Shown here in pieces: positions 39,702 to 53,828 of a DNA stretch of 64,000 nt (the stretch's first letter is position 1; each line of letters starts with the position of its first letter). The notes below the pieces were generated by a model that saw only the letters and a program-made list of their open reading frames with translations, ran no database searches and was not told the origin of the DNA. The stretch covers positions 708,583-772,582 of the forward strand of contig OZ252291.1 of NCBI GenBank assembly GCA_965250155.1. The letters run 5' to 3'. Source of the stretch: Gemmatimonadales bacterium (GTDB taxonomy: Bacteria; Gemmatimonadota; Gemmatimonadetes; Gemmatimonadales; GWC2-71-9). The translations under genes were made by a program, and so were the position numbers.

Positions 39702-39973
39702 ACGTACTCCGTGAGCACGGCCACTATTATGACGATAGTTAACGGCAAAGGCGCAATGGCGAATATCCGCATCCTGTTGCCCTCAAACTTCAAATGCATG
39801 AAGTACAGCGCTACCAGGAGCGCCTTCCAGATGGCAAGCACGAGCAGGACGAGCAGCTGAATCTCCTTCGACCAGGGGAGGAAAGCCACTCCCAGCTCGA
39901 CGACGGTGAGCACCAACAGATAGGCCCAAATCGTCCAATACTTCGGTTGTGTGTGCGCCACTCCGTCGGACAT
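39695..39973 (-). CDS. cytochrome c oxidase subunit IV family protein
   Basis: 92 aa from MSDGVAHTQPKYW, with three TM helices and the pattern YFMHLKFE. Confidence 0.7.
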   Translation of the reverse strand: MSDGVAHTQPKYWTIWAYLLVLTVVELGVAFLPWSKEIQLLVLLVLAIWKALLVALYFMHLKFEGNRMRIFAIAPLPLTIVIIVAVLTEYVW

Positions 39974-39990
39974 AGATCCTCCCAGCCTGC

Positions 39991-40650
39991 TCAAACGAGA
40001 TAGACGATGGTGAACAAGATTATCCAGACCAGATCCACGAAGTGCCAATACAGGCCGACCACCTCAACTCCGCGATGATCTTCCTTCGTATACGCGCCTC
40101 TGTAGGCCTTCCAAGTCACAAAGCTCATGCAGATGACGCCCATGGTGACGTGAAAGCCATGGAATCCCGTCATGGTGTAGAACGACGAGCCGTAGACCCC
40201 CACAGACACCGGCAACAAGCCTTCGGCCGCTCGCTCCGCCAGCTCGCTCCCGGGACCGTACCCCGAAGGCAAGAATCCCGCGTGAACGAGATGGGTGTAC
40301 TCGTAGACCTGCACGCCGACGAAGGCCGCACCGATCGCAACGGTGGCCAGCAGGTACAGTTTGAGGAGGCGCTGGTCGCCGTCTTGAATCGCGGCGAACG
40401 CCTTCACCATCGTCACGCTGCTACAGATCAGGAGGAACGTGTTGACCGCAGTGAGCGGAACGTTGAGGATCTGTCCCGGAGCGCCCCACTGCTCGGGGCT
40501 GCCGAAGCGCAGAATGATGTACGATCCGATCAGGGCCGTGAAGAACAGCACTTCCGACCCCAGGAAGACCCACATGCCCAGCTTCTCGCTGTAGACATCC
40601 GCGCCGATCTCGCGTCGGGCCGGTGGACTCATCAAGGCAGGGTGAGCCAT
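39991..40650 (-). CDS. ctaE: cytochrome c oxidase subunit III
   Basis: Motifs FLGSEVLFF, TGFHGFHVTMG and YWHFVDLVWI. Confidence 0.9.
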   Translation of the reverse strand: MAHPALMSPPARREIGADVYSEKLGMWVFLGSEVLFFTALIGSYIILRFGSPEQWGAPGQILNVPLTAVNTFLLICSSVTMVKAFAAIQDGDQRLLKLYLLATVAIGAAFVGVQVYEYTHLVHAGFLPSGYGPGSELAERAAEGLLPVSVGVYGSSFYTMTGFHGFHVTMGVICMSFVTWKAYRGAYTKEDHRGVEVVGLYWHFVDLVWIILFTIVYLV

Positions 40651-40664
40651 ATTTCTCGTCCCTC

Positions 40665-42425
40665 CTATGCGCCGGCCGCAGCCGAATCGACGTCAGATAC
40701 CAGCTTGCGGGTTTGCGGGAGGAAGTCCTCCTCCACCAGCGGCGAGCTGTACTCGTAGGGACCGCGATACACCGTCGGTACCTTGGCAAAGTTGCCATGG
40801 GGCGGCGGAGAGGGAACCGTCCATTCCAGCCCGTTGGCATCCCACGGGTTCTCGGCAGCCTTCTCGCCCTTGAACCAGCTCATGATGAAATTCACCACGA
40901 ACAGTATTTGCACAATCAACAGCAACAACGCACTCACCGTAATGAACCTGTTGAGCGGGGCGAGCGACTGTAGGAATTCGTATTGCGAGGGGTCGTAAAT
41001 GCGTCGCATGTGTCCGCTGATGCCTAGATTGTGCATCGGGAAGAACGTCAGGTTGTAGAAAAGGAAAGTCAGCCAGAAATGGATCTTGCCCAGGGTGGCG
41101 TTCATCATCCGGCCGAACATCTTCGGGTACCAATATGTCACCGCCGCAAAGATGGCGAAGAGGCTTCCGCCGAACAGTACGTAGTGGATATGAGCCACGA
41201 TGAAGTAGGTATCGTGGATGTAGATGTCCACAGGCGTGGCAGCCATGAAGATTCCGCTCAGGCCGCCAATCACGAACATCGCCACAAACCCGACCGCGTG
41301 GAGCATCGGTACGTGGAAGCGAATGTTCCCCCGCCACATCGTTCCCATCCAATTGAACACCTTGATAGCCGACGGCACCGCGATGATCATGGTGGATATC
41401 ATGAACGTCATGCCCAACGTGGGATTCATGCCGCTCTGGAACATGTGGTGGCCCCACACGACCCATCCCAGAAAGGCGATGGAGATGAGCGCGAACACCA
41501 TCGAGTAGTAACCGAACACCGGCTTGCGCGATCCGTTCGCAATGATGTCCGAGACCATGCCCATCGCCGGCAGGATGAGGATGTAGACCTCAGGGTGCCC
41601 GAAGTACCAGAACAGGTGTTGCCAGAGGATCACTTGGCCGCCGTCCGTCCAATCAAAGAAGTGCGTCCCGATAGTCTGGTCGAAGAAGAGCATGATCGCC
41701 GCCCCCGAGAGGATGGGGATGGCAAGCAGCACAAGGATCGCCGTGACGAAGAGTGACCAGATCGACAGTGGCATCCTGAACCAGGTCATCCCGGGAGCCC
41801 GCAGGTTTACCACCGTCGTGATGTAGTTCACGGCACCCAAGATCGACGCTAGACCGAGGATCGCCAGGCTCAGCAGCCAGATTTGTTGTCCCCCCCTTAC
41901 GCCGGTCCATTCGGGATCCGCGCTGAGCGGCGCGTACGCCGTCCAGCCCGCAGCCGCGTGGCCGCCTTCGACGAAGAAGCCTGCCATCATCAAGATCCCG
42001 GCAGAGAAGGCAATCCAGAACGACGCCATATTGAGTCGCGGAAATGCCATGTCCGGCGCGCCGATCTTGAGTGGGATCAAGAAATTCCCGAACACGCCGA
42101 CCAGCAGCGGCATGATGGCGAAGAACACCATGATCGTGCCGTGCATAGTGACCAGCGAGTTATAGAATTCGGGAAGCAGGATCCCGTCGGGCGCCATGGT
42201 CTCGGGAAGCAGCTGCCCCGCCGGGAGCGGCCGGTCCGGAAATCCGAGTTGCCATCGGATCATCATCGCCATCAACCCGCCGAACAGCAGGAACACAAAG
42301 CTCATCAGCAGGAATTGAATGCCGATGATCTTGTGGTCGGTCGAGAAGATGTACTTTCGCAGGAAAGATAGCTCGTGGGCTTCCACGTGCGCTGCGGGTT
42401 CCAAAGAAACCGCGGAAGTCGCCAT
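40665..42425 (-). CDS. ctaD: cytochrome c oxidase subunit I
   Basis: Motifs WYFGHPEVYILILP, GHHMF, FVIGGLSG and VAHIHYVLFGG. Confidence 0.95.
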   Translation of the reverse strand: MATSAVSLEPAAHVEAHELSFLRKYIFSTDHKIIGIQFLLMSFVFLLFGGLMAMMIRWQLGFPDRPLPAGQLLPETMAPDGILLPEFYNSLVTMHGTIMVFFAIMPLLVGVFGNFLIPLKIGAPDMAFPRLNMASFWIAFSAGILMMAGFFVEGGHAAAGWTAYAPLSADPEWTGVRGGQQIWLLSLAILGLASILGAVNYITTVVNLRAPGMTWFRMPLSIWSLFVTAILVLLAIPILSGAAIMLFFDQTIGTHFFDWTDGGQVILWQHLFWYFGHPEVYILILPAMGMVSDIIANGSRKPVFGYYSMVFALISIAFLGWVVWGHHMFQSGMNPTLGMTFMISTMIIAVPSAIKVFNWMGTMWRGNIRFHVPMLHAVGFVAMFVIGGLSGIFMAATPVDIYIHDTYFIVAHIHYVLFGGSLFAIFAAVTYWYPKMFGRMMNATLGKIHFWLTFLFYNLTFFPMHNLGISGHMRRIYDPSQYEFLQSLAPLNRFITVSALLLLIVQILFVVNFIMSWFKGEKAAENPWDANGLEWTVPSPPPHGNFAKVPTVYRGPYEYSSPLVEEDFLPQTRKLVSDVDSAAAGA

Positions 42426-42459
42426 TGTTATTCCTTACGTCGAAGTGTTCTTACCCTCG

Positions 42460-43134
42460 CTACTCCTCGTCGGCCGCCACGGTCCTGTCCGACAGCCACT
42501 GTTGGTAATCTTCCGCCAAGTGGACGATCACCCTGGCCCGCATGAGATAGTGACCCAGACCGCACAGCTCGGCACAAGCAATCTCGTACTCCCCTACTTC
42601 CGTCGCTTCGAACCACACCTTGATGTCCATACCCGGCACCGCGTCCTGCTTGACGCGGAACGCAGGGACGAAGAATGAGTGTATCACGTCTTCGGCAATC
42701 AGCTGCAGCTCCACAGGCCGGTTCACCGGAATGTGAAGCTGGTTTCTCAGCGTGAAATCGTCGCCGGTCCCGAGCTGCCCATCGGGACCCCGATAAGTGA
42801 AGTTCCACTCGAACTGCTTGGCATGGACTTCGTACGGGATGGCGTTCGGCGGAATGCTGTTCCGGCCCCTGACGTGATTCCACACCCCGCCGCTCATGAG
42901 TCCGATGATTACCAGCGTCACAGCCGGAACCGCAGTCCAAACAATCTCGGCCCTTATGCTTCCTTCGATGTATTGGGCCTTGCGGCCCGGCCGGGCCCGA
43001 TACTTGATCGCGAACACAACCAGCCCGACTTCGACCACCACAAACGCTATACCGGTAATGACGAGAATGACGTAATACAAAAAATCGATATCACCGGCGA
43101 ACGTGGACGCACTGGATGGTAGAATCCAACTCAT
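42460..43134 (-). CDS. ctaC: cytochrome c oxidase subunit II (no fused cytochrome c domain)
   Basis: Two TM helices with CuA ligands VIHSFFVP and CAELCGLGHYLM. The protein ends about 30 aa after the CuA motif. Confidence 0.9.
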   Translation of the reverse strand: MSWILPSSASTFAGDIDFLYYVILVITGIAFVVVEVGLVVFAIKYRARPGRKAQYIEGSIRAEIVWTAVPAVTLVIIGLMSGGVWNHVRGRNSIPPNAIPYEVHAKQFEWNFTYRGPDGQLGTGDDFTLRNQLHIPVNRPVELQLIAEDVIHSFFVPAFRVKQDAVPGMDIKVWFEATEVGEYEIACAELCGLGHYLMRARVIVHLAEDYQQWLSDRTVAADEE

Positions 43135-43146
43135 GCCGGAATCTCC

Positions 43147-43902
43147 TCAGCCGCCGAACGTGAAGTGCAGACTCGCCGAGCCGTCAGCTGCCATCGTGAC
43201 TTCGCCCGACTGCGTACCGAACGTTTCGTGCCAGGCCTCGACCTGGTAGGTCCCCGCCGGCAACCCGCCGATGGTGAACGAGCCGTCGGCAGCAGATGTT
43301 GCGAAGTAGGGATGCTCCACCACGCCCACGTACGCGTTCATCCACCCGTGCACGTTGCACTCCATGGGAATCATGATTTCGGGCGTGGCGAAACTGCGCC
43401 GCGATGTCATTCCCACGCGCGGCTGGCTGATATTGAAGCCACGGTTTTCGGTCGGGACCGCCTTGATGTTGTGAAGCAGCGGGTCGCTGTTGGTGATTTC
43501 CAGAGTCTGGCCCACCATCACCCCCACCACTCGAGGCGAGTAGAGGCATCCGTTTTGGTCTATGGTTGCGGCTTCACTGGGCTCCGGATACGGCCCGCCG
43601 GGCAGTCCGCCCACGATGCGGATGAACACATTTGCCAATTTGCCGTCCGTCACCACCACAATCGGGTCCGTGGGTCCGTCGCTGTGTTTGGCGGCGCAAT
43701 CCGGTTCCTCTGCCATGTCGATGGCCGGGTTCGTTGGCACGCTGCCGGCAAAACTGATTACACCTGTGATACTGCTGTTACCCAGCGGCGCCGCAGATGC
43801 CGCGGCACCACCGCTCCCACCCGAGCCCCCGTCGCCCCCACCACACGCGAGAAACGCGAACAAGCACGAGGTTACCCAAAAACGTCGCATCTTTCCTCCC
43901 AA
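43147..43902 (-). CDS. cupredoxin-like (type 1 copper) lipoprotein with C-terminal carboxypeptidase-regulatory-like beta domain
   Basis: Lipobox FLACGGG. Putative ligands are LLHNI ... ECNVHGWM (C-x2-H-x2-M, as in amicyanin). The C-terminus ADGSFTIGGLPAGTYQVEAWHE fits the regulatory-like beta domain. Confidence 0.6.
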   Translation of the reverse strand: MGGKMRRFWVTSCLFAFLACGGGDGGSGGSGGAAASAAPLGNSSITGVISFAGSVPTNPAIDMAEEPDCAAKHSDGPTDPIVVVTDGKLANVFIRIVGGLPGGPYPEPSEAATIDQNGCLYSPRVVGVMVGQTLEITNSDPLLHNIKAVPTENRGFNISQPRVGMTSRRSFATPEIMIPMECNVHGWMNAYVGVVEHPYFATSAADGSFTIGGLPAGTYQVEAWHETFGTQSGEVTMAADGSASLHFTFGG

Positions 43903-43914
43903 TAGAGAACGATT

Positions 43915-45510
43915 CTATGCCCCGCGTTCCCGTCGCTGGGCGCGCCAGACGATGCCGAATCCAAGTCCTGCACTCAGCACAACAGCAACGATTGGTGCCA
44001 CAAACACGCGAGGCGGTGTCGGCACATCCAAATAGATCGCATACCAGGCACTGATCGAGCCGCGCACACCGTCCTCACCGGCGGTGCCGTCTGCGGCAAA
44101 GAAACCGATCGGCAACGGCTCACCCGGCGTGAATGGGACGGCACCGCTCGGGTCAGCCGGGGCCAACACCCGCATGAACTGCACCTGCCACTGGCCATCC
44201 GCAAATGTAGCCGAATGTGCAACCTGAGGCGCCCCGGCGATGGGCGCGAACGAACCCATTCCGGTAGCCGTGCCCTCTCGAACCCGATCCGGCGAGCTGG
44301 TCCACTGCCACATGTACACCGGGTGCCGCGGGTCGCCGCCCATAAAGAAGGGTAACTCCAATCCCTCGGGCGGGTCGAGCGGGAACTGAATTCCAATCCG
44401 GTCGGGACCCTGCTCCCCGACGTGGGGCGCATCGACATCTGGGAGCGTCTCGACGATGCCCTGGAAGAATGCGTCCCATTCCGGATCGGGACTTCGGGAC
44501 GGATCGTTCCACGTGAGCTTCACGGTCAGGTTCTGGTCGTCGTGCGCGGCTCGCACCCAAATGCCGTCCACCGTGGGCGCGAACCACCGTGGCTTGATAG
44601 TAATCTGACCGACCATCGGGATGTAATACGGTTCGACGTTGTCCCACAGCGGATCCTCCGGACCGGACGGCAACGCCCCGTCAAACCGCGCCGCACGCAC
44701 CACGTCGCGAGGCTGGGGCGCCTCGTCGGGCGAAAGACTCAGCACGTACTGCGCAACCCGCCAAAGCTGCTCGTCGGTAATGATTCCAGCGTCTATGACA
44801 TCACTGTTGGAGGGCATCGGTGTTCCATCCAACCCCGTCCGCATCCGGAGGTAGATGTCGTCGACCGTACCGCCGCCGTTGAAATTCCAGTTTTCCGAGA
44901 GATCGGCTGCCCGAACCGGGAACCCCCAGTCGTCGGTCAACTCCGGGGCGGAGTTCCCATCGCCGCGGCCCTCATCGCCATGGCAGCGGAGGCATTCCAG
45001 CTCATCCACAAACACGCGCCGCCCTTCCTCGAGGTCTGCTTCGGAGGGCCGCCCGGGCTTGCGCCCTACACTGATCGGCTCGGGCGGGGCGCCGTCGAAG
45101 AATCTCGAAAACGTCTTGATATACGCGATCACGTCATCCCGCTCGCCGCCGCTCAGCTTGTCAGCCCACCCCGGCATAGCCGTGCCAGGCATTCCATTGT
45201 CGATGACGGCGCGCATATCGTCATCCGTAGGCAACTCGCCGCTCGCAGTCGTTCTCACCTGGTAGACGGCCGTCGTGAAGTCGCGCGGTCGCGGCAACAT
45301 GAACGCCGCTGCCTCGCCGTCTCCGGCACCCGTGTCTCCGTGACACCCGGCGCACCATTTCTCGTAGAGCTGCTCGCCACGGTCTAGGTCTTGGGCAAGG
45401 ACGGAGGGGGGAGCAGGGAGGAGGAACGCCCCGGCCAGGAGCAGGAAGGCCGCGCACGGCAAGACTCCTCCCACCTCCCACCTCCCACCTCCCTTGACCG
45501 GCCGGATCAC
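43915..45510 (-). CDS. diheme cytochrome c fused to an ethylbenzene-dehydrogenase-gamma/DOMON-like (EB_dh) domain
   Basis: CAGCHG and CLRCHG, followed by IWVRAAHDDQNLTVKLTWND...DRIGIQFP. The GTG start at 45510 has AAGGAGAG upstream and overlaps the upstream stop (GTGA). Signal peptide ...SVLA/QDL. Confidence 0.7.
   Translation of the reverse strand: MIRPVKGGGRWEVGGVLPCAAFLLLAGAFLLPAPPSVLAQDLDRGEQLYEKWCAGCHGDTGAGDGEAAAFMLPRPRDFTTAVYQVRTTASGELPTDDDMRAVIDNGMPGTAMPGWADKLSGGERDDVIAYIKTFSRFFDGAPPEPISVGRKPGRPSEADLEEGRRVFVDELECLRCHGDEGRGDGNSAPELTDDWGFPVRAADLSENWNFNGGGTVDDIYLRMRTGLDGTPMPSNSDVIDAGIITDEQLWRVAQYVLSLSPDEAPQPRDVVRAARFDGALPSGPEDPLWDNVEPYYIPMVGQITIKPRWFAPTVDGIWVRAAHDDQNLTVKLTWNDPSRSPDPEWDAFFQGIVETLPDVDAPHVGEQGPDRIGIQFPLDPPEGLELPFFMGGDPRHPVYMWQWTSSPDRVREGTATGMGSFAPIAGAPQVAHSATFADGQWQVQFMRVLAPADPSGAVPFTPGEPLPIGFFAADGTAGEDGVRGSISAWYAIYLDVPTPPRVFVAPIVAVVLSAGLGFGIVWRAQRRERGA
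45467..45494. repeat. tandem heptamer CCTCCCA x3 plus one imperfect copy (TGGGAGG on the coding strand)
   Basis: Copies at 45467-73, 45474-80 and 45481-87, then CCTCCCT at 45488-94. It lies in codons 6-15 (KGGGRWEVGG) of the cytochrome gene. Confidence 0.9.
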
Positions 45511-46286
45511 TGCTCTCCTTCCACTTCCCACGTCCTCGGCTCCAACCCCGCCTGCTCGTAGATGAAGATGATCACGGACCAGATCTCGTCCTCGGTAAGG
45601 AAATCCTCCCACACCGGCATCGCCGAATTCCACGGCGTCCCTTCAGGCGGCAACCCCGGACCGCCCTTTGCTATGCGCCAGAAGAGGAAGCTCTCTTGCA
45701 GTTGATCGATCGTGCCTGCCTCGAACGCCAGCGGTGTCGGGTTGAAACCGTGGCCGAAGTGCCCTTGCCCGTCCAACAGATCGCCGTGACAAGGCAGGCA
45801 ATTCTGATAGTAGACCCGCCTTCCCTCCAAGTAATGCTCTTCCATGGAGCCGCGCGACCGCAGCGGGTTCTCCAGGCCGGCTAACTTGATAGTCTTATCG
45901 CCGAACCTGATGGTCGCAGGCGGCGCCGGGTGAATCGACCGCAGCTGAGCCGTCGAGCCCACTTTCGGCCGTGCCATGTTGAATGTCGCCAGCCCGATCA
46001 GCACTGAAATCGCCGCAAGCAATGCGCCTCGCAGCGCGCGCTTGTCCGCATCCACCAGCGTCGCCTGTATCGGCTCCTTGAACCTCTTCCAGCGCTCCTC
46101 GTTCTCGCTCACAAAGATGAGTATTCCCAGCAACGCAATGAGCATGTACTCCAACACCACGCTGTTCGGTACGGCGGCGCTCCCGGGAAACAACGGAATC
46201 CCATAATTGAAAAACAGAAATGCGCCAAGCGAAAGCGCGACCGCCTGACCGAACGGATGCTTCATCCAACCCAGGATTCTCTTCAC
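45507..46286 (-). CDS. membrane-anchored monoheme cytochrome c
   Basis: Three N-terminal hydrophobic helices, CLPCHG, and AMPVWEDFLTEDEIWSVIIFIY (class I cytochrome c C-terminal pattern). The GTG start overlaps the upstream TAG by 1 nt. Confidence 0.75.
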   Translation of the reverse strand: MKRILGWMKHPFGQAVALSLGAFLFFNYGIPLFPGSAAVPNSVVLEYMLIALLGILIFVSENEERWKRFKEPIQATLVDADKRALRGALLAAISVLIGLATFNMARPKVGSTAQLRSIHPAPPATIRFGDKTIKLAGLENPLRSRGSMEEHYLEGRRVYYQNCLPCHGDLLDGQGHFGHGFNPTPLAFEAGTIDQLQESFLFWRIAKGGPGLPPEGTPWNSAMPVWEDFLTEDEIWSVIIFIYEQAGLEPRTWEVEGEQ

Positions 46287-47080
46287 TATCGCCGTCCTGC
46301 CAGGAACTGAACCATGGCTTCTAGCTGCTGGGCCGACAGTTTCTGCCCGAAGTCAACCGGCATCATGCCTGCAAATTGTTCAAAGCCGTCGGAAATTTCT
46401 GCATTTGGATCGAGAATAGCGCTCCTTATCTGATCCGCCGTGAGCCGGGCGCCAATCCCGTCGAACGACGGCCCGATCGGAATCGAGATTCCGTTGATGC
46501 CGTGGCAACCGATGCACACATTCTGTGTGAGCAGCTGCATTGGATCTGTGGTCGAGCTGAAAGTGGCCGGCACCGCCGCAGCCGCGGCCGGCTCCGCGGA
46601 TTCGCCTCCGCCTGGCTGGATGTCGGCGGCCGTTACCGTAACCTCACCCCCTTGATCCTGGAGATAGGCGATGATGGCCCAGATCTGGTCAGCCGAGAGT
46701 TGTCGCCGAGCATCCGGCATGATAGCGGTGAATCCGTCTACCAGGTACTCGGCCGGCTGAGTGAGCGATTCGTAGAGATATGCTTTGCAATCCATCCCCG
46801 GCTTAGAATCGCCACACCGCTGCCCAATCGTCCCCTGGCCGGCGTGATCCGTGCGGAGATTCGGCGCCCGGGTACCCAACCCATGGCACACCGTGCAGCC
46901 ACCCGCACCGCTGAAGAGCGCCTCACCGGCAGGTACCAGCACCTCAGGAGTGACCCCTGCACTCAGATCCAGCACCTCCGGCACGGCAGATTGCAGTTGC
47001 GGAATGATCTGTGCCACCATCGTGTAAAACCCCAGCACGATGGCGGCGAGCAACAGCACCCTGAGATTCGTCTTCCACAT
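46286..47080 (-). CDS. diheme cytochrome c, N-terminal anchor/signal
   Basis: CTVCHG and CIGCHG, with DQIWAIIAYLQ and QLEAMVQFL helices. The start was taken at MWKTNLRVLLL, 4 nt after the upstream stop. Confidence 0.8.
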   Translation of the reverse strand: MWKTNLRVLLLAAIVLGFYTMVAQIIPQLQSAVPEVLDLSAGVTPEVLVPAGEALFSGAGGCTVCHGLGTRAPNLRTDHAGQGTIGQRCGDSKPGMDCKAYLYESLTQPAEYLVDGFTAIMPDARRQLSADQIWAIIAYLQDQGGEVTVTAADIQPGGGESAEPAAAAAVPATFSSTTDPMQLLTQNVCIGCHGINGISIPIGPSFDGIGARLTADQIRSAILDPNAEISDGFEQFAGMMPVDFGQKLSAQQLEAMVQFLAGRR

Positions 47081-47084
47081 AACG

Positions 47085-48839
47085 CTACTCCACGAGAGTC
47101 GCGGGTTGTGTCTGCCGCGCAAGCGGCGCCGCCTTGGACTCCGATGCGATCCCCTCGGCCAGGCCGCCCAGCCAAAAGATGAACGTGACCAAGCTCAAGA
47201 AGATTACGACACACACGGTTATCATGTTCGCGGCGTACCCCAACGCCGGCGTGACGGCATAGTCGCTGGTGTCGCGCATGACCTCCCACACGTGCCAGTG
47301 CTGCCGAATGCCGCTGCGTGCGAAGCCCATCAACCCCATGAGCCAGGTGAAAGTGATCGCTAGAACGAAGATCGCGTATTGCGACCGCTCGGGCATCTCA
47401 CCCCAGCGAATCTCGCCTTTCGACCCCGCTCCTCGGAGGATGAACACGTCGATCACCGTCACCCCGATGATACACGCGAGCACCGCAACCACCTGTAACG
47501 GGCTGAGTACGGCGACCCGTGTGATGGTCTCGACCCCGAACGACACACCGAAGAGATCGAATTTGTATCCAATGATTCCCAAGAACAGCACGACGCCCCC
47601 GGACAGCACGAACATCGCCCCCTGGATAAGGGTCCCCGTCTTGGCCCAGGGGACCGTAGGAATCCTGTTCGCCCGCCGATACAGCAAGAAGGAAAGGAAA
47701 GTGGTCAGAATCATGAAATTAACGGCGGTGTTCTTCGCGCTCATCAGGCCGAGCACACCGAGGAAGGGATGGCGGCTGCCCCCCATTGCCGCGAATTCGT
47801 CACGCGTAGCGATCAGGGTGTTCGGAGTGCCCCATACTATCCAACAGATGATCAGGACCACCAGCATCCACTTCGTGTAGGGCATGAATCGTTCGGCTCC
47901 GGGTATTCGCCCCATCCCCGTCCACAGGTAGTAATTGGCCGACAGGAACAGTACGCCGATGAGAATGGCTTGGACGATCCACAACCAGCTCATGAAGCCA
48001 CCCATCATCGTAATGCCCAGCTGTTGGTTGTACTCGTAAATCTCCCGTCCCAGGTAATAGCCCGCGAAGGGCAGCACGATAAACATCGAGATGGCGATGA
48101 ACGTCCCCACGTATCCCATCCAATCGTAGTGGGCACGCTCTTCATCGGTCTTGGCCGCCAAGAAACGATACGCCGCGTACGCCGCGACGATCGAGCCACC
48201 GAACACGGCGTTGGCAATCATGCGGTGTATGTTGATCGGCATCCAAGTGGCGTTGGCGATGGCGTTCCACAACCCGACGCCCTCGGGCAGGCCTTGCACG
48301 GTGGTGCCCTCGGGCGGCGACATCATGTAGGTAAGCCATCCATTGGCAATGAACATGACGGCGGTGCCCCACACGTTCAGCAGCAGGCCGAGCCCCCAGT
48401 GCCCCCATTTGGCGCGACCTTCCTTCCACTTGTCCCAGCCGTAGTAATAGAGGTATAGCGTGAACGATTCGATGAAGAACAGGCCGGCATAGATCCACAT
48501 TGACAGATGGAAGATCTCCGCCATGTGGCCCCAGAACGCCGGGTAGAGCGTTGACAGAAGAAACAGCAGCAACCCGCCCCACAGAGCGGTGGCGCTGTAG
48601 GCGAAAACCAACAGCCGCGTGAACTCTTTCGAGAGCTTGTCGTATTTCGAGTCCTTGCCGACGATTCCGATGAACTCGGTGATCACGGCAAACATGGGCA
48701 CGCCGAGTACAAACGCGGCGAACATCAGGTGGATTTCCGCCGCAATCCAAACCGCGCCCCGCGCACCAATGCCCGGGAAGTCGCCGTACTGGCGGGCGCC
48801 ATCCGCGGCTCCCTGGATCAGGCTCAGCGCGTCAATCAT
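47085..48839 (-). CDS. cytochrome bd-like membrane protein (CydA family, no Q-loop, no CydB partner)
   Basis: The N-terminal ~190 aa are collinear with E. coli CydA (EIHLMF, FFIESF, YYYGWDKW, FIANGWLTYMM, NIHRMI). About 13-14 hydrophobic spans. Degenerate GIRQHW stands in place of GRQPW. Confidence 0.75.
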   Translation of the reverse strand: MIDALSLIQGAADGARQYGDFPGIGARGAVWIAAEIHLMFAAFVLGVPMFAVITEFIGIVGKDSKYDKLSKEFTRLLVFAYSATALWGGLLLFLLSTLYPAFWGHMAEIFHLSMWIYAGLFFIESFTLYLYYYGWDKWKEGRAKWGHWGLGLLLNVWGTAVMFIANGWLTYMMSPPEGTTVQGLPEGVGLWNAIANATWMPINIHRMIANAVFGGSIVAAYAAYRFLAAKTDEERAHYDWMGYVGTFIAISMFIVLPFAGYYLGREIYEYNQQLGITMMGGFMSWLWIVQAILIGVLFLSANYYLWTGMGRIPGAERFMPYTKWMLVVLIICWIVWGTPNTLIATRDEFAAMGGSRHPFLGVLGLMSAKNTAVNFMILTTFLSFLLYRRANRIPTVPWAKTGTLIQGAMFVLSGGVVLFLGIIGYKFDLFGVSFGVETITRVAVLSPLQVVAVLACIIGVTVIDVFILRGAGSKGEIRWGEMPERSQYAIFVLAITFTWLMGLMGFARSGIRQHWHVWEVMRDTSDYAVTPALGYAANMITVCVVIFLSLVTFIFWLGGLAEGIASESKAAPLARQTQPATLVE

Positions 48840-50154
48840 CGCGCGAGAAGAAAGGCAGACGTTTCGAGAAATCCACCGGCATATTGCGGCGCACCTCCCG
48901 CATCAGTTCGGCGGTAACCTCGGTGTGCCCCTCGCGCCGCGCGTAATCCTCCAGCCGTTTCACGACCACGCCGCGTACAAACGAGGGGATGCGTTGAATC
49001 CGCGCCTCAGCCTCATCCGACCACTGCAATTTGGCGGTGACCACCGCCCCATAGGTCACGGCGCGCGAGGTGACGAGCGGACGAGTCTCGTCCGGCTCAT
49101 AGGCACAGGAAGAATCTTCCGCCATGTAGTCGCCGCTCGAGCTGTAAGCCCGGGCACGACACCCACCACAAATCGCTCGGTATTCACAGCGACCGCACTT
49201 TCCGCCTAGCGCTCCCCGGCGCAGATCGTGAAACAGCTCCGAGTTGTTCCACACCTCGGCGAACGACGACTCACGGAGATCGCCGGCCGGGAGCGGCATA
49301 TAAGGACACGCCGTGAGCTTGCCGTCTGGTGTTATGCGCCCGTACTGCACGCCGCACGGGCAGCGGGTGGCATAATTGAGAATCGGAGACTCCGGAGCGC
49401 GCTGGTGCACCAGCCGCATGAAATGCGGTGCACACTTGGCTCGCACCATCATTCGCCCCATGTACTCGATATGAAGGTCCACGAGCTCGCCCAACGAATC
49501 CTCGTATTCCTCCGGCGACAACTCCGCCATCTTAGCGCCGCGCCCCGTGGAAACCACGAAATACGCGTTGAACGACACGGCGCCCTTCTCGGCGGACCAC
49601 GCAACCAGTCCAGGCAGCTCGCGACGGTTCCCCTTGGTGAGCGTGGTTTGTATGACGAAATCGAGACCGTGCACTACCAACCTGTCCACTGCAGCCAGCG
49701 TCGCATCGAGCGAACCGTGGCCGTGCCGGAAGCGGTCGTGATACTTCACGTCGAGCGACTCGACACTCACGGCAACACCGGTCACGCCGGCGTCCTGTAA
49801 CGCGGCGATTTTCTCGGAGGTGAGCAAAGTGCCATTGGTGCCTACGACCACTGTAGCTCCACCCTTCGCCGCATGCGAAGCTATCTCCGAGAGATCCTCA
49901 CGCAGCAGGGGCTCGCCGCCCGACAGGATAAACATGGGATTGGGATTGAGGGCGAGAATCTCGTCTGCGATGCGCAGGCACTCGTCGGTAGACAGCTCAT
50001 CGTCGGCGGATTCGGAGGGGCCCGCCGAGATATAGCAGTGCGCACACTGGAGATTACACCGGCGCGTGAGATTCCACGCGACAACATGGGGCAAGTAGTT
50101 GCCCGCTTGGCGATCACCGGCCGGCGCCTCTCCCAACGCCGCGAGTGACGTCAC
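48832..50154 (-). CDS. radical SAM/SPASM enzyme of the NirJ/AhbC/AhbD type with C-terminal PCP_red-like domain
   Basis: VVAWNLTRRCNLQCAHCY, ILSGGEPLLREDL and the SPASM Cys cluster GKCGRCEYRAICGGCRARAY. The C-terminus reads WSDEAEARIQRIPSFVRGVVVKRLEDYARREGHTEVT. Confidence 0.8.
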   Translation of the reverse strand: MTSLAALGEAPAGDRQAGNYLPHVVAWNLTRRCNLQCAHCYISAGPSESADDELSTDECLRIADEILALNPNPMFILSGGEPLLREDLSEIASHAAKGGATVVVGTNGTLLTSEKIAALQDAGVTGVAVSVESLDVKYHDRFRHGHGSLDATLAAVDRLVVHGLDFVIQTTLTKGNRRELPGLVAWSAEKGAVSFNAYFVVSTGRGAKMAELSPEEYEDSLGELVDLHIEYMGRMMVRAKCAPHFMRLVHQRAPESPILNYATRCPCGVQYGRITPDGKLTACPYMPLPAGDLRESSFAEVWNNSELFHDLRRGALGGKCGRCEYRAICGGCRARAYSSSGDYMAEDSSCAYEPDETRPLVTSRAVTYGAVVTAKLQWSDEAEARIQRIPSFVRGVVVKRLEDYARREGHTEVTAELMREVRRNMPVDFSKRLPFFSRDD

Positions 50155-52139
50155 TCGTCTCCTGTTTTCAGCAACTTTTCGACCGCTGCCTTGGCGTCAG
50201 CCACCGACACTGTTTTAAAGTCAACGGGACAGGCCGACGCTTTTTCCTCTATATCCCTTATGGGACACCTGGTGACCCCGGACGCCTTCGCCTCTTCGAT
50301 AAATTGCCGCATCTCCCGCGACAGTCCATCTCCACCCTCGGCTTCCGCACGAATCTGCTTGGCGCGCAGCTCCCGGAACATCCCCATCATTGTCTCCGCA
50401 TCGAACTCGTCCGCCTCGATCATCGCCTGTTTGTTCTCGTCCATGACCGAAGTGGTGACGCGCCACATCTCATGACCACTGGCGAATTTCTCCACCGCAT
50501 TGCGGGCCAGCGGACGGGCGATCAAGGGAACCGTTCTGAGGCGCTCGAAAGCTTCGACGGTCCAGACAGTGGAGTCTGCCACTTTACGTTCGCGCGTCGT
50601 CATGTGACCGGTCATGGGGCACTTTACGTCGACCACGGCCCCCGCGATTTCGCTGTCTGCCTCATTCCCCAGCACCAGCGTTTTGGCCATCTGCTCCTCG
50701 GCCTTGATTTCGGCACGAGCCAGCTCCTCTGCGTCACCGACGCCCATCAGCAACTGCATGTGAGTCGGCAACAACTTCCGGATGGCCTCGTCCAACCATT
50801 TGTTCGTCACCAGGTCGGCGCCGTGCTCAATGGTGTACTCCTCAACCGCGCGGCGCGCTATCCCCTGTGCGAACGGAGGCACGCGCTGAATTCGCACCTC
50901 GGCGTCCGGGGCCCACGGAATTCCCTCTTTGCCGTCCTCTTCGAGCCAGGGAATGTCCTCGGGCCTTACACCGACCGTCCCGGTAACCAGCAGATTGCAC
51001 GGGGCGAGTCGCAGCAGGTTCTCTACCTGAGAGCCCATCTCCGTTCCATCGATCCGGTGTGCGCCGTGTCGCCCCACGATCAACAGGCTTGGTTGAATCT
51101 CCTCGACCCACTGCAGAATGACTTGGAACGGTTTGCCTATGAGAATCTGCGTTTCGAACCGAACATCGGGAAACTCTTTTGCGATCGCCTCAGCACGCTT
51201 GATGTTCGCTTGGCTGAGCTTCAGGAGTCCCTTGTCGATGATGTTGTTGTGAAGCTCCTCCTGCTCTTCGAACTTGAAGACCTTGGACGCCTTCTCGGAG
51301 AGTACATCCTTGATGTTGTTGAAGACGGCGTGATGATATTCGACGTCGAACGCACTGCAAACGTATACCATCGCATCAAAGTCGCGGGCAAGTTCCAGAG
51401 CGACTCTCATCGTCCTGTAGCTGTACGCGGACCCGTCGACGCAAACCATGAACTTGCCGCGACGCAGTGGCTTGTCGTTGCGGATGATGAGCATGTCCTT
51501 TTCAATGCGCCTTGCCGCCCTGGCAACTACACCGCCAATCTGCGAGTACGGCTGGCGGCCGATGCCGTGTGCGCCCATCAATACCAGATCGTATTGCCGC
51601 CCCGACGCGCCGGCGAGTTTGTCAGCCTGATCTTCGTCCTCACCAACTATGCGTCCGTCGGCACCCAGCCGGACGTCAGAACGAACCCGCTCGCCCCCGT
51701 CGTAATTGGCCGCGATGTTCGGATCGAACCCGATCAGGCTGGGTAGTTGACCCGCTCCACGATTAACCTCGTTAACAATTTCCTCGTAGTTGATTCCCTC
51801 GAGGAGTTGTCGCCGCAACGGAACATCCGCAGCCGCGCAGCGCCGCTCCACCTGGTCGAGGAACGAGTCGGAGATGAGTTGCAGGCCCTTCTCGATCAGC
51901 TTGTCGTGGACTTTGCGCTGGCGCTTGATCTCGGCGGGCGTCTGAAATTGTGCTGGAAGGCCTGTCTCGAGCTGGCGGAATCGAACGTCGTGAAGCCGCG
52001 CCGCGTAGACATGGTTGCCGGTGATGCGCCCTTGGGATTTCGAGCACACCTCGATTGCGCGGGCCACGGCCCAATCGGAGCATTGGGAGTTATCAACTGG
52101 AACGAGAACTTCACTGTACATACCCCCGCCCTTCGGCAA
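50151..52139 (-). CDS. tandem universal-stress-protein domains fused to two PCP_red-like domains
   Basis: Usp patterns VLVPVDNS...DLVLMGAHG and FMVCVDGS...SLLIVGRHG. The PCP_red-like copies are at aa 407-455 and 525-570. The C-terminal tail carries CPIRD...ACP. Confidence 0.7.
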   Translation of the reverse strand: MPKGGGMYSEVLVPVDNSQCSDWAVARAIEVCSKSQGRITGNHVYAARLHDVRFRQLETGLPAQFQTPAEIKRQRKVHDKLIEKGLQLISDSFLDQVERRCAAADVPLRRQLLEGINYEEIVNEVNRGAGQLPSLIGFDPNIAANYDGGERVRSDVRLGADGRIVGEDEDQADKLAGASGRQYDLVLMGAHGIGRQPYSQIGGVVARAARRIEKDMLIIRNDKPLRRGKFMVCVDGSAYSYRTMRVALELARDFDAMVYVCSAFDVEYHHAVFNNIKDVLSEKASKVFKFEEQEELHNNIIDKGLLKLSQANIKRAEAIAKEFPDVRFETQILIGKPFQVILQWVEEIQPSLLIVGRHGAHRIDGTEMGSQVENLLRLAPCNLLVTGTVGVRPEDIPWLEEDGKEGIPWAPDAEVRIQRVPPFAQGIARRAVEEYTIEHGADLVTNKWLDEAIRKLLPTHMQLLMGVGDAEELARAEIKAEEQMAKTLVLGNEADSEIAGAVVDVKCPMTGHMTTRERKVADSTVWTVEAFERLRTVPLIARPLARNAVEKFASGHEMWRVTTSVMDENKQAMIEADEFDAETMMGMFRELRAKQIRAEAEGGDGLSREMRQFIEEAKASGVTRCPIRDIEEKASACPVDFKTVSVADAKAAVEKLLKTGDE

Positions 52140-52261
52140 TGTTGGTGGGTTCCACCAAAAACCAGACTTGGAGGCCGCCTCACGGCACTAGATTGACCTG
52201 ACCTGCTCCGCCCGATTTTGCGCGCGATTATATAGCCCTCGGACCATCTGTCAAGACCGTT

Positions 52262-52507
52262 TCACGGCACGAGTTGCTTTCCGTCGCCATCGAAAACCGT
52301 GAGAGCGTCAACCGGACAAATCTCACACGCTCGAAGGAGTCTCTCGCGCTCTACCGACTCGGGATGCTCGCCGAACACGGCGATGTCATCAGCATCCAGC
52401 TGGAACCCCTCCGGCGCCTCGGACACGCAATCTCCGAAGCCAACGCAGAGACCTCGGTCGATTTGGATTCTCAGCCCTGCGATCGTGCGCTCGTCAATCT
52501 CGGACAC
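52262..52507 (-). CDS. single-cluster ferredoxin
   Basis: 81 aa with CVGFGDC ... CEICP (a CxxFxxC...CP pattern, suggesting 3Fe-4S or a 4Fe-4S cluster with a non-Cys ligand). Confidence 0.8.
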   Translation of the reverse strand: MSEIDERTIAGLRIQIDRGLCVGFGDCVSEAPEGFQLDADDIAVFGEHPESVERERLLRACEICPVDALTVFDGDGKQLVP

Positions 52508-52948
52508 CTACATCGCCTCCAGACCCAGATCGGCACGGGCTTCATCCATGACGGCGGGAGTAATCTCGGCAATCCCGTGTTCGGCCGCCCACTCCACATA
52601 AATCTTCTTGACCATCCCCCGAACGAACTTGGGCACCCTGGTCAGCCGTTCCTCGCTTTCGGCGCTCCAACGCACGCCGCCGGGTCCGCCGGGTGCGGCA
52701 TCCTCGAACGCGTCTTCCCGACCGATCATGGAGCGGCGCGTGAGTTCCATGGGCTGCTCGTCCAGCGTCCGCCCTCCAATCTGCACACCGAGGGCCCCCA
52801 CCAACTGCGTTTCCATGGGATTCGCCAACATCGCTACCTTGTACCCGCACTTCGGACAGCTAAACGATGCGCCAAATGTTCCGTCGCCGGGTTCTTGCCT
52901 CTCCTCGAACGTCATCTGCTCGTCGCAACCGACGCATAGGAACTTCAT
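52508..52948 (-). CDS. zinc-ribbon + PCP_red-like domain protein
   Basis: CVGC...CPKC at the N-terminus. The C-terminus reads VRWSAESEERLTRVPKFVRGMVKKIYVEWAAEHGIAEIT. It abuts the ferredoxin start. Confidence 0.6.
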   Translation of the reverse strand: MKFLCVGCDEQMTFEERQEPGDGTFGASFSCPKCGYKVAMLANPMETQLVGALGVQIGGRTLDEQPMELTRRSMIGREDAFEDAAPGGPGGVRWSAESEERLTRVPKFVRGMVKKIYVEWAAEHGIAEITPAVMDEARADLGLEAM

Positions 52949-52985
52949 GCCAACGCTCCCAAAAACGGTGATCGAAGGGACAACA

Positions 52986-53828
52986 TTACCGGACGCACCC
53001 CCAAAAGGCGTCTACCAGGCCGGGCGTATCACAGCTCGCCGGCCCGGCGCCCGGCGTGAACGGAACGCGCGCCAGCAGGGGCACGCCAAACTCCTCAGAC
53101 AGGTCGTTGCCCGCCGTTCCATCGAACAACGCACGCAGCGCACCACACTCATCACATCGATAACTGCTCATGTTTTCCACGATCCCGAGGAGGGGTATGC
53201 CGGCTTCCGACGCCGAGCACATGGTTCGAGCGACCGATCTACGAGACTCCTCGCTGGGGATCGTGACGACGAGGGCACCGGTCAGGTTGGGAACCATCTG
53301 CTTGAGATCCACACCGCCGTCCGCACCGGGAGGCAGGTCGACCAGCAGCAGGTCAAGGGCTCCCCACACCACGTCGCTCAGGAACTCTCTCAGCGTACCG
53401 GTCTCCAGCACACCCCGCCACACAAAGCGCTCGGTGGTCGGCTCACGCCAACGCAGCGGTTGGCTTTCCTCCAGGAGCAAGTCCGTCGACACCACACGAA
53501 CGCCGACCGTACCTATGGCTGGTTCGATGCCGTCTTCGGTGACGCGCAAGGGGCCGCTCACCGCCAGAAGTCTCGCCACGGTGGGGCTGCGCAGGTCGGC
53601 GTCCAGAACACCCACTCCCTGTTCGAGACGTGAGGCCAGGCCGGCTGCCAGAGTCGCCGTCAGATGGCTCTTGCCGACGCCGCCCTTGCCGCTCATCACG
53701 GCCACAACCTGTCGCACGGATGCCAGTCGACGACCCACTCTCTCACGCTGGGCTACCACCTGCGCGTACAACTGCGACCGATCTTCGCCCCCGACGTCGT
53801 GATAGGTGCGGAAACTCATAGATCCCAT
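52986..53828 (-). CDS. Mrp/NBP35 (ApbC)-family Fe-S cluster carrier ATPase
   Basis: Deviant Walker A SGKGGVGKS, LLLVDLPPG and ENMSSYRCDECG (CxxC). Confidence 0.85.
   Translation of the reverse strand: MGSMSFRTYHDVGGEDRSQLYAQVVAQRERVGRRLASVRQVVAVMSGKGGVGKSHLTATLAAGLASRLEQGVGVLDADLRSPTVARLLAVSGPLRVTEDGIEPAIGTVGVRVVSTDLLLEESQPLRWREPTTERFVWRGVLETGTLREFLSDVVWGALDLLLVDLPPGADGGVDLKQMVPNLTGALVVTIPSEESRRSVARTMCSASEAGIPLLGIVENMSSYRCDECGALRALFDGTAGNDLSEEFGVPLLARVPFTPGAGPASCDTPGLVDAFWGCVR

Follow-up and report, generated by a model that had tools for sequence, protein, structure and literature searches.

The radical SAM gene (rSAM) at 48832..50154 of the 64,000-nucleotide stretch of DNA analysed here (the window) belongs to a separate and as yet uncharacterised clade that is sister to the heme synthase AhbD. 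We tentatively propose, with a probability of about 0.42, that its product decarboxylates tetrapyrrole propionates without oxygen and works within a PCP_red-linked module serving heme-rich respiratory operons. The domain content, clade, partners and neighbourhoods described below are observations made on the gene and its homologs.

A PCP_red-fused member of the AhbD branch

The rSAM gene and the parts of its product are as follows:

48832..50154, minus strand: AhbD-like radical SAM/SPASM/PCP_red gene, 440 aa (ORF, Pfam and NCBIfam)
50035..50058, minus strand: CX3CX2C radical SAM cluster motif CNLQCAHC, residues 33-40 (translation)
49630..50073, minus strand: radical SAM core, residues 28-175 (Pfam PF04055, E = 3.3e-27)
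49909-49920, minus strand: GGEP SAM motif, inside the radical SAM core
49105..49434, minus strand: SPASM region with eight invariant cysteines (Pfam PF13186, alignments)
48889..49023, minus strand: PCP_red domain, residues 378-422 (Pfam PF08369)

The Pfam domain matches of the rSAM protein are far past chance level. PF04055 scores 96.1 bits against a gathering score of 29.5, placing the protein in the radical SAM superfamily; PF13186 matches residues 265-324 with 34.2 bits against a cut-off of 21.5, placing it in the SPASM subgroup; and PF08369 identifies a PCP_red domain with 52.7 bits against a gathering score of 32.5 (E = 4.2e-14), the full 45-position profile being covered. The three domains are common to more than 120 homologs of at least 67% identity, and the AF2 model of the protein is confident (pLDDT 87.7, pTM 0.86). 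In two family alignments of 30-34 sequences, the cluster cysteines C33, C37 and C40, residues G79, G80, E81 and P82 of the SAM motif, the SPASM cysteines C241, C265, C283, C320, C323, C329, C332 and C350, and residues W378, A382, P390 and E402 of PCP_red are invariant. The eight SPASM cysteines would be enough for two auxiliary [4Fe-4S] clusters. The motifs named in the initial annotation are all present in the translation, namely CNLQCAHC within VVAWNLTRRCNLQCAHCY, a further motif ILSGGEPLLREDL, the SPASM-type cysteine blocks RCPCGVQYGRITPDGKLTACPY, GKCGRCEYRAICGGCRARAY and SCAYEP, and the C-terminal block W-x2-E-A-x2-R-I-x-R-I-P-x-F-V-R-G, found as WSDEAEARIQRIPSFVRG; the C-terminal extension, estimated there at about 65 residues, instead spans about 85 residues beyond the SPASM core (356-440).

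The PCP_red stretch matches the BchB C-termini of solved DPOR structures (3aek_B residues 447-520; 2kru) and is, judged by sequence, homologous to the C-terminal helical domain of the DPOR subunit BchB/ChlB. The match to that domain (PDB 3aek, 2ynm, 2kru) is clear over about 45 residues, but the settings differ: here PCP_red is found on three other kinds of protein (radical SAM, tandem USP and Zn-ribbon), in non-phototroph contexts and often in multiple copies.

Searches against NCBIfam place the rSAM protein nearest to AhbD (TIGR04545, 296.9 bits against an equivalog cut-off of 500), with NirJ2 (TIGR04055, 293.3 bits) as the second-best family match; we take NirJ2 to be an older name for AhbD-type genes. 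NirJ (TIGR04051) follows with 186.4 bits against a cut-off of 515 (E = 7e-55), and AhbC and NirJ1 (TIGR04546 and TIGR04054) with 168.8 and 155.8 bits against 650. Peptide maturase models score lower still relative to AhbD, namely MftC 133 against a cut-off of 265, PqqE 99.6 against 381, SkfB 75 against 300, and AlbA 69.7 against 850, and the protein thus falls below every curated family cut-off. Pfam detects no HemN_C domain in the protein, and no HemN or HemW model is among its 25 best NCBIfam matches. The comparison with NirJ, AhbC, AhbD and HemN/HemW that the initial annotation had called for ends at AhbD/NirJ2, and its assignment to the tetrapyrrole-type rather than the peptide-modifying SPASM enzymes is borne out by the scores (AhbD 297 and NirJ2 293 against PqqE 100 and AlbA 70 bits).

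Among unfused homologs, those closest to rSAM are of AhbD type and include an AhbD-AhbA-AhbB fusion. They share 35-41% identity with the rSAM protein, as well as the radical SAM core and a full SPASM domain with two auxiliary-cluster cysteine sets. The PCP_red-fused homologs nevertheless group in a clade of their own. By score, rSAM stays at 297 bits against the AhbD cut-off of 500, unfused neighbours reach 403-459 bits on the AhbD model, and a NirJ2-type representative reaches 533. Unlike AhbD, members of the clade bear one to four C-terminal PCP_red domains and are co-conserved with USP-PCP_red, Zn-ribbon-PCP_red and Mrp proteins, with no ahbA, ahbB or ahbC nearby. NirJ and AhbC, whose chemistry concerns iron tetrapyrrole side chains, share the SPASM tetrapyrrole branch with rSAM but match it far less well (186 and 169 bits), and rSAM has neither nir nor ahb gene context. 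The fused clade ranges over Gemmatimonadota, Nitrospirota, Nitrospinota, anammox Planctomycetota, Poribacteria, Acidobacteriota, Chloroflexota and Proteobacteria, and its members are publicly annotated merely as "radical SAM protein".

The gene array and its most constant partner

The rSAM gene lies in a long same-strand array with these elements:

52986..53828, minus strand: Mrp/ApbC/NUBPL-type Fe-S cluster carrier ATPase, 280 aa (Pfam ParA (NUBPL) 187 bits; NCBIfam MrpORP, ApbC)
52508..52948, minus strand: small protein, 146 aa, whose N terminus has a four-cysteine Zn-ribbon/rubredoxin-like motif and whose C terminus is a PCP_red domain (Pfam)
52262..52507, minus strand: small [4Fe-4S]-type ferredoxin, 81 aa (Pfam Fer4_13, Fer4_15)
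52227..52254, minus strand: sigma-70-like promoter TTGACA-16-TATAAT, 12/12 matches, upstream of the USP gene
50151..52139, minus strand: USP-USP-PCP_red-PCP_red protein, 662 aa (Pfam)
48832..48839, minus strand: 8-nt overlap ATGATTGA of rSAM stop and bd-like start (sequence)
47085..48839, minus strand: cytochrome bd-like subunit I homolog of OR-N2 type, 584 aa (weak PF01654, residue signature)
43915..47122, minus strand: three cytochrome c genes (Pfam, NCBIfam, CxxCH counts): 46286-47122, diheme; 45507-46286, monoheme; 43915-45633, diheme with a fused EB_dh/EbdC-like heme b domain
38829..43902, minus strand: CarboxypepD_reg-like gene, aa3-type oxidase COX2/COX1/COX3(/COX4) and heme O synthase CtaB (Pfam, synteny)

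The tightest partner of rSAM is the USP-PCP_red protein, not the bd-like gene. A USP-PCP_red gene is present in 56/80 rSAM loci and stands immediately upstream on the same strand in 39/64 informative ones. This partner is absent from the initial annotation. In the window, the USP-PCP_red and rSAM genes overlap by the 4 nt GTGA, in which the stop of the former meets the GTG start of the latter; an AGGAG lies 5 nt before that start. At its other end rSAM reads ...cgc gAT GAT TGA, so that the 8 nt ATGATTGA are common to its end and to the start of the bd-like gene (ATG at 48839), as the initial annotation had stated.

Farther upstream, the array is also conserved. TTGACA and a −10-like hexamer occur at the equivalent place in most Gemmatimonadota relatives examined, and the ferredoxin gene is syntenic in Gemmatimonadota. 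The four cysteines of the Zn-ribbon-PCP_red protein are 94-100% conserved among 16 orthologs, and the protein accompanies Mrp in Gemmatimonadota, Nitrospinota, Poribacteria, Chloroflexota and further groups. The window ORFs scanned and the recurrent neighbour families yielded no core heme-pathway gene such as those for ferrochelatase, ChdC or HemE, and the ORFs scanned in the window contained no ahbA/B/C or coproporphyrin-pathway (cgoX, cpfC) gene. The module lies beside several different heme-rich respiratory clusters: OR-N2; aa3/CtaB/SCO1; and an Aio-like Mo enzyme together with MauG-like diheme proteins.

Partial association with an OR-N2 bd-like gene

The bd-like protein resembles the OR-N2 complexes of Murali, Gennis and Hemp (2021) in residue signature and in an operon of several cytochromes c plus an EbdC homolog. 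PF01654 matches it weakly (61.6 bits) and no NCBIfam model does; residues H37, Y117, E124, Y131, Y133, H147 and H205 agree with the OR-N2 signature row (Murali et al., Supplementary Table 6). OR-N2 members keep His19, E107, H126 and H186, carry Tyr for E99, and have an operon with several cytochromes c and an EbdC homolog; in the bd-like protein H37, Y117, E124, H147 and H205 are spaced as in the OR-N2 reference row, and its neighbours are two cytochrome c genes and the diheme c-EB_dh fusion. A simple hydropathy scan gives about 12-14 hydrophobic segments, some of them merged, compared with 14 transmembrane helices for OR-N2. The cytochrome c/EbdC-like unit is kept with the bd-like gene in 80/80 metagenome loci. 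Unlike in our loci, radical SAM or PCP_red genes beside OR-N2 operons are not mentioned in the 2021 paper and its supplements. A canonical cytochrome bd quinol oxidase (CydAB) was considered and rejected, the PF01654 score being just 61.6 bits and the downstream genes being cytochromes c, with no cydB.

The association of rSAM with the bd-like gene is real but partial. A bd-like gene occurs in 19/80 rSAM loci, in six lineages and varied gene order, and rSAM in 14/29 OR-N2 contigs of at least 15 kb, about half being without it. The pairing emphasised in the initial annotation recurs far beyond chance; its exclusivity did not stand, as 61/80 rSAM loci have no bd-like gene within 10 kb. Specifically, all 12 of 12 Gemmatimonadota loci have the rSAM and USP genes next to the bdL-cytc1-cytc2-cytcEB unit, and pairing with the bd unit is also found, in varying positions and orientations, in Deltaproteobacteria-labelled MAGs, Anammoxibacter, Rhodospirillaceae, Vicinamibacterales and one Nitrospirota MAG. 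The bd-like gene is missing near rSAM in 26/27 Nitrospirota loci and in all Nitrospinota and Poribacteria loci, and most Proteobacteria have rSAM apart from any bd-like gene. In these groups rSAM instead neighbours a HemY-type oxidase or a CopD/HemJ-clan membrane protein. The earlier link to heme d, which may yet hold, likewise gains no support here: the bd-like protein is of OR-N2 type, the literature reports no heme d or other modified heme for OR-N enzymes, and a bd family member with b hemes alone is an active oxidase.

Proposed function and alternatives

As a propionate decarboxylase, rSAM would cleave SAM with its CX3CX2C cluster, and the 5'-deoxyadenosyl radical would take a hydrogen from the propionate beta-carbon on ring A or B of an iron tetrapyrrole, most likely Fe-coproporphyrin III. 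With CO2 lost and the electron leaving via the two auxiliary clusters of SPASM, the propionate would become a vinyl group; after a second such round the product would be heme b, made without O2 or H2O2. Knowledge of AhbD and CgdH is our basis for inferring which substrate is used, what is made and what PCP_red does. PCP_red in DPOR helps to enclose protochlorophyllide, and in rSAM it may cap the tetrapyrrole or dock partners that bear PCP_red. The module, consisting of rSAM with the USP-PCP_red protein, the Zn-ribbon-PCP_red protein, the ferredoxin and the Mrp-type Fe-S loader, would be co-transcribed with a respiratory supercluster (the OR-N2 bd-like protein, five c hemes, an EbdC-type heme b, aa3 oxidase and CtaB) and would supply it with heme b. 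AhbD can act as terminal heme synthase without other Ahb genes (PMC13564367; PMC7242693), and stand-alone AhbD is reported in organisms with a coproporphyrin-dependent pathway (PMC13564367). Since rSAM misses the AhbD equivalog cut-off (297 against 500) and belongs to a separate clade, it may act on another substrate. Nor is it obvious why a housekeeping heme synthase would require a PCP_red tail, a dedicated USP-PCP_red partner or a Zn-ribbon-PCP_red protein. The HemY-type and CopD/HemJ-clan neighbours of rSAM described below, and the variety of heme-rich clusters beside the module, speak for the decarboxylase reading; the failure to find core heme-pathway genes in the window ORFs scanned or the recurrent neighbour families speaks against it.

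An unlikely alternative, advanced in the initial annotation, is that rSAM is dedicated to tailoring or inserting the heme of the bd-like (OR-N) complex: it would alter a side chain of heme b or a precursor to give the OR-N2 active-site heme, d-type or other, and the PCP_red proteins would pass it to the membrane subunit. The rSAM/USP pair adjoins the bd-like unit across several lineages at differing positions and occurs in 14/29 long OR-N2 contigs, rSAM and the bd-like gene overlap by 8 nt in the window, small 2xPCP_red proteins adjoin bd-like genes without rSAM in loci L157, L161 and L164, and all module-bearing phyla are OR-N-positive in Murali et al., Supplementary Table 3, an overlap that is coarse at phylum level. 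The module is also carried by strictly anaerobic anammox lineages, in which any oxidised heme would need an O2-independent route. Tailoring is opposed by the 61/80 rSAM loci without a bd-like gene within 10 kb, by the half or so of long OR-N2 contigs without rSAM, and by the b-heme-only relative and the lack of reported modified hemes noted above. As far as we know, E. coli has no AhbD/NirJ homolog yet produces heme d. That rSAM repeatedly adjoins OR-N2 clusters in rearranged order, and that PCP_red-only proteins accompany bd-like genes where rSAM is missing, suggests a more specific task than general heme supply. We nonetheless consider it unlikely that the PCP_red module (USP-PCP_red and AhbD-like-PCP_red, with or without the Zn-ribbon-PCP_red protein, Mrp and ferredoxin) is an oxygen-independent machine making or installing a tailored active-site heme for OR-N bd-like complexes, with PCP_red as tetrapyrrole hand-off domain.

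An analog of coproporphyrinogen III dehydrogenase (CgdH/HemN), converting metal-free coproporphyrinogen III to protoporphyrinogen IX ahead of a HemY-type or HemJ-like oxidase, seems quite improbable. It would likewise perform oxidative propionate-to-vinyl decarboxylation, and the PCP_red source enzyme binds an iron-free tetrapyrrole. In 11 loci, all from Proteobacteria in the broad sense, which generally use the protoporphyrin route, a HemY/CgoX-type protein passes the protoporphyrinogen oxidase model (TIGR00562, 244 bits against a cut-off of 98), usually encoded directly downstream of rSAM. It misses the narrower PgoX equivalog models, however, and its gene also lies inside bd-like superclusters (L041, L082), so it is perhaps not a housekeeping oxidase. 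In 36 loci, including Nitrospirota and Poribacteria, rSAM adjoins a four-TM CopD/HemJ-clan protein with an invariant TM1 histidine, but this protein falls below every HemJ model (UPF0093 matches 5/14 members, best E = 2e-4), and rSAM itself lies outside the HemN family, its sequence relatives being coproheme-using AhbD enzymes. AhbD and CgdH do carry out analogous reactions (PMC7242693). It is very unlikely that rSAM is a peptide- or protein-modifying SPASM maturase, cross-linking or oxidising a residue in a neighbour (cytochrome, bd-like subunit or USP) or in a small peptide that is not annotated. Peptides are frequent substrates of SPASM enzymes, the partner proteins are co-conserved, and the closest solved structures are the RiPP/protein maturases SkfB, PqqE, SuiB and anSME. 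These structural hits, however, reflect only that AhbD and NirJ have no solved structure; maturase HMMs give 70-133 bits against about 295 for AhbD/NirJ2, and no sulfatase or conserved small precursor-like ORF accompanies rSAM in its neighbourhoods across phyla. We give almost no credence to a NirJ ortholog making heme d1 for cd1 nitrite reductase. The motif similarity noted in the initial annotation and the E value of 7e-55 favour it, but 186 bits against 515 ranks below AhbD and NirJ2, and nirS, nirF, nirD/L/G/H and nirN were not found among the window ORFs scanned or the recurrent neighbour families.

We know of no O2- and H2O2-independent route from coproheme to heme other than AhbD-type enzymes. 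Groups that are dominant in the environment (Nitrospira, Nitrospina, anammox bacteria, Gemmatimonadota, Poribacteria) widely carry the fused clade, and if it is their terminal heme synthase, the heme-pathway reconstructions for them need revision. Should heme tailoring for OR-N be true, bd-type acquisition of special hemes and OR-N heme content would be open to experiment, and a hand-off machine would offer the first genetic handle on non-b heme acquisition by bd-type enzymes, in anaerobes (anammox) and aerobes. Either way, the DPOR PCP_red domain has a new use in this family, as a tag common to the three PCP_red-bearing proteins of the gene array.

Gene array and protein architecture

The gene at 48832-50154 (-) encodes a 440-residue AhbD-like radical SAM/SPASM protein with a C-terminal PCP_red domain (rSAM), and lies in an array, 38829-53828, in which all genes occupy the minus strand.

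Genes of the array, assigned with family HMMs
52986-53828 (-), Mrp/ApbC-type Fe-S carrier
52508-52948 (-), four-cysteine Zn-ribbon and PCP_red protein (Zn-ribbon-PCP_red)
52262-52507 (-), ferredoxin
50151-52139 (-), USP-USP-PCP_red-PCP_red protein (USP-PCP_red)
48832-50154 (-), rSAM
47085-48839 (-), cytochrome bd-like protein
43915-47122 (-), three cytochrome c genes, the last with a fused EB_dh/EbdC-like heme b domain
38829-43902 (-), CarboxypepD_reg-like protein, COX2, COX1, COX3 and CtaB

The motifs quoted in the initial annotation are all present in the translated rSAM ORF. Pfam places Radical_SAM at residues 28-175 (E = 3.3e-27), SPASM at residues 265-324 and PCP_red at residues 378-422 (52.7 bits; gathering score 32.5), each above its gathering score. 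Solved BchB/ChlB chains match the PCP_red stretch at their C-termini, as does the isolated domain 2kru; the C-terminal extension that carries PCP_red is present as described, but spans about 85 residues rather than 65. In alignments, eight SPASM cysteines, three cluster cysteines, GGEP and the PCP_red residues W378, A382, P390 and E402 are invariant across the rSAM family. The AlphaFold2 model is confident (pLDDT 87.7, pTM 0.86), and its PDB neighbours in Foldseek are generic SPASM or twitch enzymes only, because neither AhbD nor NirJ has, to our knowledge, a solved structure.

The reported 8-nt overlap is confirmed: the rSAM stop codon and the ATG of the bd-like gene both fall within ATGATTGA. 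The rSAM GTG start follows AGGAG and shares 4 nt with the end of the gene upstream, stop codon included. The 122-nt gap between the ferredoxin and USP-PCP_red genes contains a perfect sigma-70 consensus, TTGACA-16-TATAAT, at 52227-52254 (-). Most Gemmatimonadota relatives examined retain the -35 box at this site, along with a -10-like box, and this conserved promoter suggests a transcription unit beginning with the USP gene. An Rfam search of the cluster returned no riboswitch.

The bd-like protein carries H37, Y117, E124, Y131, Y133, H147 and H205, the residue pattern of the OR-N2 type of Murali et al., and the operon make-up around its gene agrees with their OR-N2 description. Their paper and supplements mention no radical SAM gene. 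Within the literature collection searched, no paper joined radical SAM with either PCP_red or bd-like proteins, or AhbD with anammox, and nothing of use emerged on the heme pathways of Nitrospira or Kuenenia.

Several further features lie around the array. A divergent HmuY-like gene (heme-binding hemophore family) at 54278-54901 (+) adjoins the cluster, as it does in the Gemmatimonadota relatives L001, L002, L066 and L074. The 142-aa membrane ORF upstream of Mrp shows no similarity to the DUF420/CtaM-like gene at the equivalent Nitrospinota position. On the 3′ side of CtaB are a conserved 62-aa ORF, 38644-38832 (-), and a 519-aa ORF without Pfam match, 36987-38546 (-). Elsewhere in the window, SprA_N (gliding/type IX secretion translocon family) is the sole domain match of a 2066-aa ORF at 1075-7275 (-). 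In the close relative L001 (1256-7054), three 366-aa DDE transposase (IS) genes, one blastp family by our own clustering, lie in and beside the cluster; one separates the Mrp and Zn-ribbon-PCP_red genes, and the remainder of the cluster is intact.

Family placement of rSAM

rSAM scores below every curated NCBIfam cut-off, that of AhbD being 500 bits.

Scores of rSAM against NCBIfam models
AhbD, 296.9 bits
NirJ2, 293.3 bits
TIGR04053, 256 bits
NirJ, 186 bits
AhbC, 169 bits
MftC, 133 bits
PqqE, 100 bits
AlbA, 70 bits

Best matches to peptide maturases would have refuted the reading in the initial annotation; AhbD and NirJ2 instead top the ranking, ahead of MftC, PqqE and AlbA, so that this test does not refute it. 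A peptide maturase role is unlikely. A NirJ role is unlikely as well.

Searching 1.84 billion cluster representatives with HMMER gave 45,880 relatives, and our own domain HMM detected one to four PCP_red copies in 43 of the best 150 of these. In a neighbour-joining tree of catalytic cores, every fused representative falls in one clade, within which three apparently unfused sequences are nested. The nearest unfused representatives are AhbD types: P0283 scores 459 bits against the AhbD model, P0305 lies above the NirJ2 cut-off, and P0287 (704 aa) unites AhbD and both siroheme decarboxylase subunits, AhbA and AhbB, in one chain. Other unfused relatives of about 700 aa occur among the listed representatives. 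A PCP_red profile search yielded short fragments and mini-proteins only, and so did not bring other PCP_red architectures to light.

Genomic neighbourhoods seen from both sides

Close rSAM homologs (at least 67% identity) all come from Gemmatimonadota MAGs with identical synteny. A wider survey, with a diverse family alignment as query and one genome per GTDB species, gave 80 loci: 27 from Nitrospirota, 12 from Gemmatimonadota, 11 from Poribacteria, 6 from Nitrospinota, 4 from anammox and other Planctomycetota, and the remainder from Alpha-, Gamma-, Zeta- and "Delta"-proteobacteria, Vicinamibacterales and Anaerolineales. Taxa are named as in the records, and genes were called by cross-locus conservation, some of these calls being imperfect; in three Gemmatimonadota loci tblastn was needed to recover the bd-like gene.

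USP-PCP_red is present in 56 of the 80 loci. Of the 64 loci that extend far enough upstream, 39 have it directly upstream of rSAM on the same strand; in two further loci it is directly downstream, and in Poribacteria it lies a few genes away. Mrp and Zn-ribbon-PCP_red recur in Gemmatimonadota, Nitrospinota, Poribacteria, Chloroflexota and others. The bd-like gene occurs in 19/80 loci, including 12/12 Gemmatimonadota; in the others (L006 and L040, "Deltaproteobacteria"; L036, Anammoxibacter; L041, Rhodospirillaceae; L072 and L076, Vicinamibacterales; L080, Nitrospirota) the bd cluster lies upstream, not downstream, of rSAM. Heme-copper oxidase, CtaB or SCO1 genes are near rSAM in 15 loci. Eleven of the 80 loci, all from Proteobacteria sensu lato, hold a HemY-type FAD oxidase that passes the model for protoporphyrinogen oxidase (TIGR00562, 244 bits versus 98), usually directly downstream of rSAM (for example L075:3271-4677 (+)).

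A CopD-clan four-TM protein of about 170 aa (for example L025:11342-11854 (+)) adjoins rSAM in 36/80 loci, comprising 25/27 Nitrospirota and 11/11 Poribacteria. Its first TM helix carries an invariant histidine, with WxGG after it. Matches to CopD, DUF4149 and Urate_ox_N are weak, as are those of 5 of the 14 members to the HemJ family UPF0093; a role as a heme b membrane partner is conceivable. Homology to the first helices of the bd-like protein was ruled out (hhalign probability 0.2%).

From the other side, OR-N2-like proteins were aligned and used as the query against metagenomes; each of the 80 loci obtained retains the bd-like/cytochrome c unit. In 16 of them the retrieved DNA includes the USP-rSAM pair, which is divergently oriented in some (L101, L112, L124, L127). 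Among loci of at least 15 kb the pair is found in 14/29, versus a chance expectation of about 0.5% in 20 kb, assuming a roughly single-copy gene and a genome of a few Mb; the rSAM/bd-like association is therefore real. The pairing described in the initial annotation is recurrent but not universal: whole bd-like subclades, such as those with the arrangement bdL-cytc1-fused cytcEB (L118, L119, L121, L129, L138), are without USP-rSAM.

Individual loci hold further partners. The metagenome loci L086, L089, L093, L097, L099, L100 and L102 carry two tandem copies of the whole OR-N2 unit, each with a bd-like gene, two cytochromes c and cytochrome c-EbdC; the bd-like protein of the first copy is longer (about 720 aa), and the USP-PCP_red and rSAM genes follow. 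In L157:2953, L161:2911 and L164:2635 (+), a 164-166-aa 2xPCP_red protein adjoins a CarboxypepD_reg-like gene and two bd-like genes, and no rSAM is visible on these long contigs. L041 and L082 place the HemY-type oxidase within a bd-like/cytochrome c supercluster. In L045, L052, L067 and L081 (Alpha-/Gammaproteobacteria), several genes lie upstream of the USP-rSAM-HemY set, among them those for MauG/MbnH-like diheme peroxidases, a Rieske protein and a Mo subunit of arsenite-oxidase-like type (Rieske_3 and molybdopterin); these loci also hold a 746-aa PBS-lyase-type HEAT-repeat protein, a CarboxypepD_reg-like protein and an FGE-sulfatase-domain protein. One Nitrospira sublineage (L011-L039) has a B12-binding radical SAM protein, kin of cyanobacterial slr0320 (444 bits, under cut-off), just 5′ of USP-PCP_red (for example L032:2873-4498) and accompanied by a UbiE-type methyltransferase; the other sublineage has SAM synthetase and SAH hydrolase as neighbours. 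In L072 (Vicinamibacterales), the gene immediately 5′ of the bd-like gene, 1139-4405 (+), encodes a 1088-aa protein that contains a 4Fe-4S dicluster region, gives a faint match to molybdopterin binding (E 0.0085) and recalls ActB of Alternative Complex III. Possibly the OR-N2 unit belongs to a larger oxidoreductase acting on quinol or cytochrome c.

Possible roles of the PCP_red-fused enzyme

The stable unit is USP-PCP_red with rSAM-PCP_red, often accompanied by Mrp and Zn-ribbon-PCP_red, and the bd-like cluster is one frequent neighbour of several. The initial annotation had suggested that rSAM may carry out tetrapyrrole side-chain chemistry dedicated to the downstream bd-like protein, with a possible bearing on heme d. 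Such dedicated tailoring would account for the persistent though rearranged linkage to OR-N2 and for PCP_red proteins adjoining bd-like genes, but nothing in this analysis indicates heme d, which OR-N enzymes are not known to contain, and one bd family member is active with b hemes alone. We regard dedicated tailoring as rather doubtful. Less probable still is a CgdH-like action on metal-free coproporphyrinogen. The adjacent CtaB and aa3 oxidase genes, with no COX15/CtaA heme A synthase domain detected in the scanned cluster genes, raised the idea of an alternative heme A synthase; it was set aside because Nitrospira, which keeps the module, is not known to have heme A oxidases.

The neighbours of the USP/rSAM unit all relate to heme or heme-rich respiration. 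AhbD decarboxylates the ring A and B propionates of coproheme. It can also substitute for ChdC in coproporphyrin-pathway organisms without other Ahb genes (PMC7242693; PMC13564367). On these grounds we tentatively favour, at a probability of roughly 0.4, an AhbD-like decarboxylase: rSAM would remove propionate CO2 without oxygen from a coproheme-type substrate to form heme b, and PCP_red may cap the tetrapyrrole or act as a tag on which partner proteins dock.
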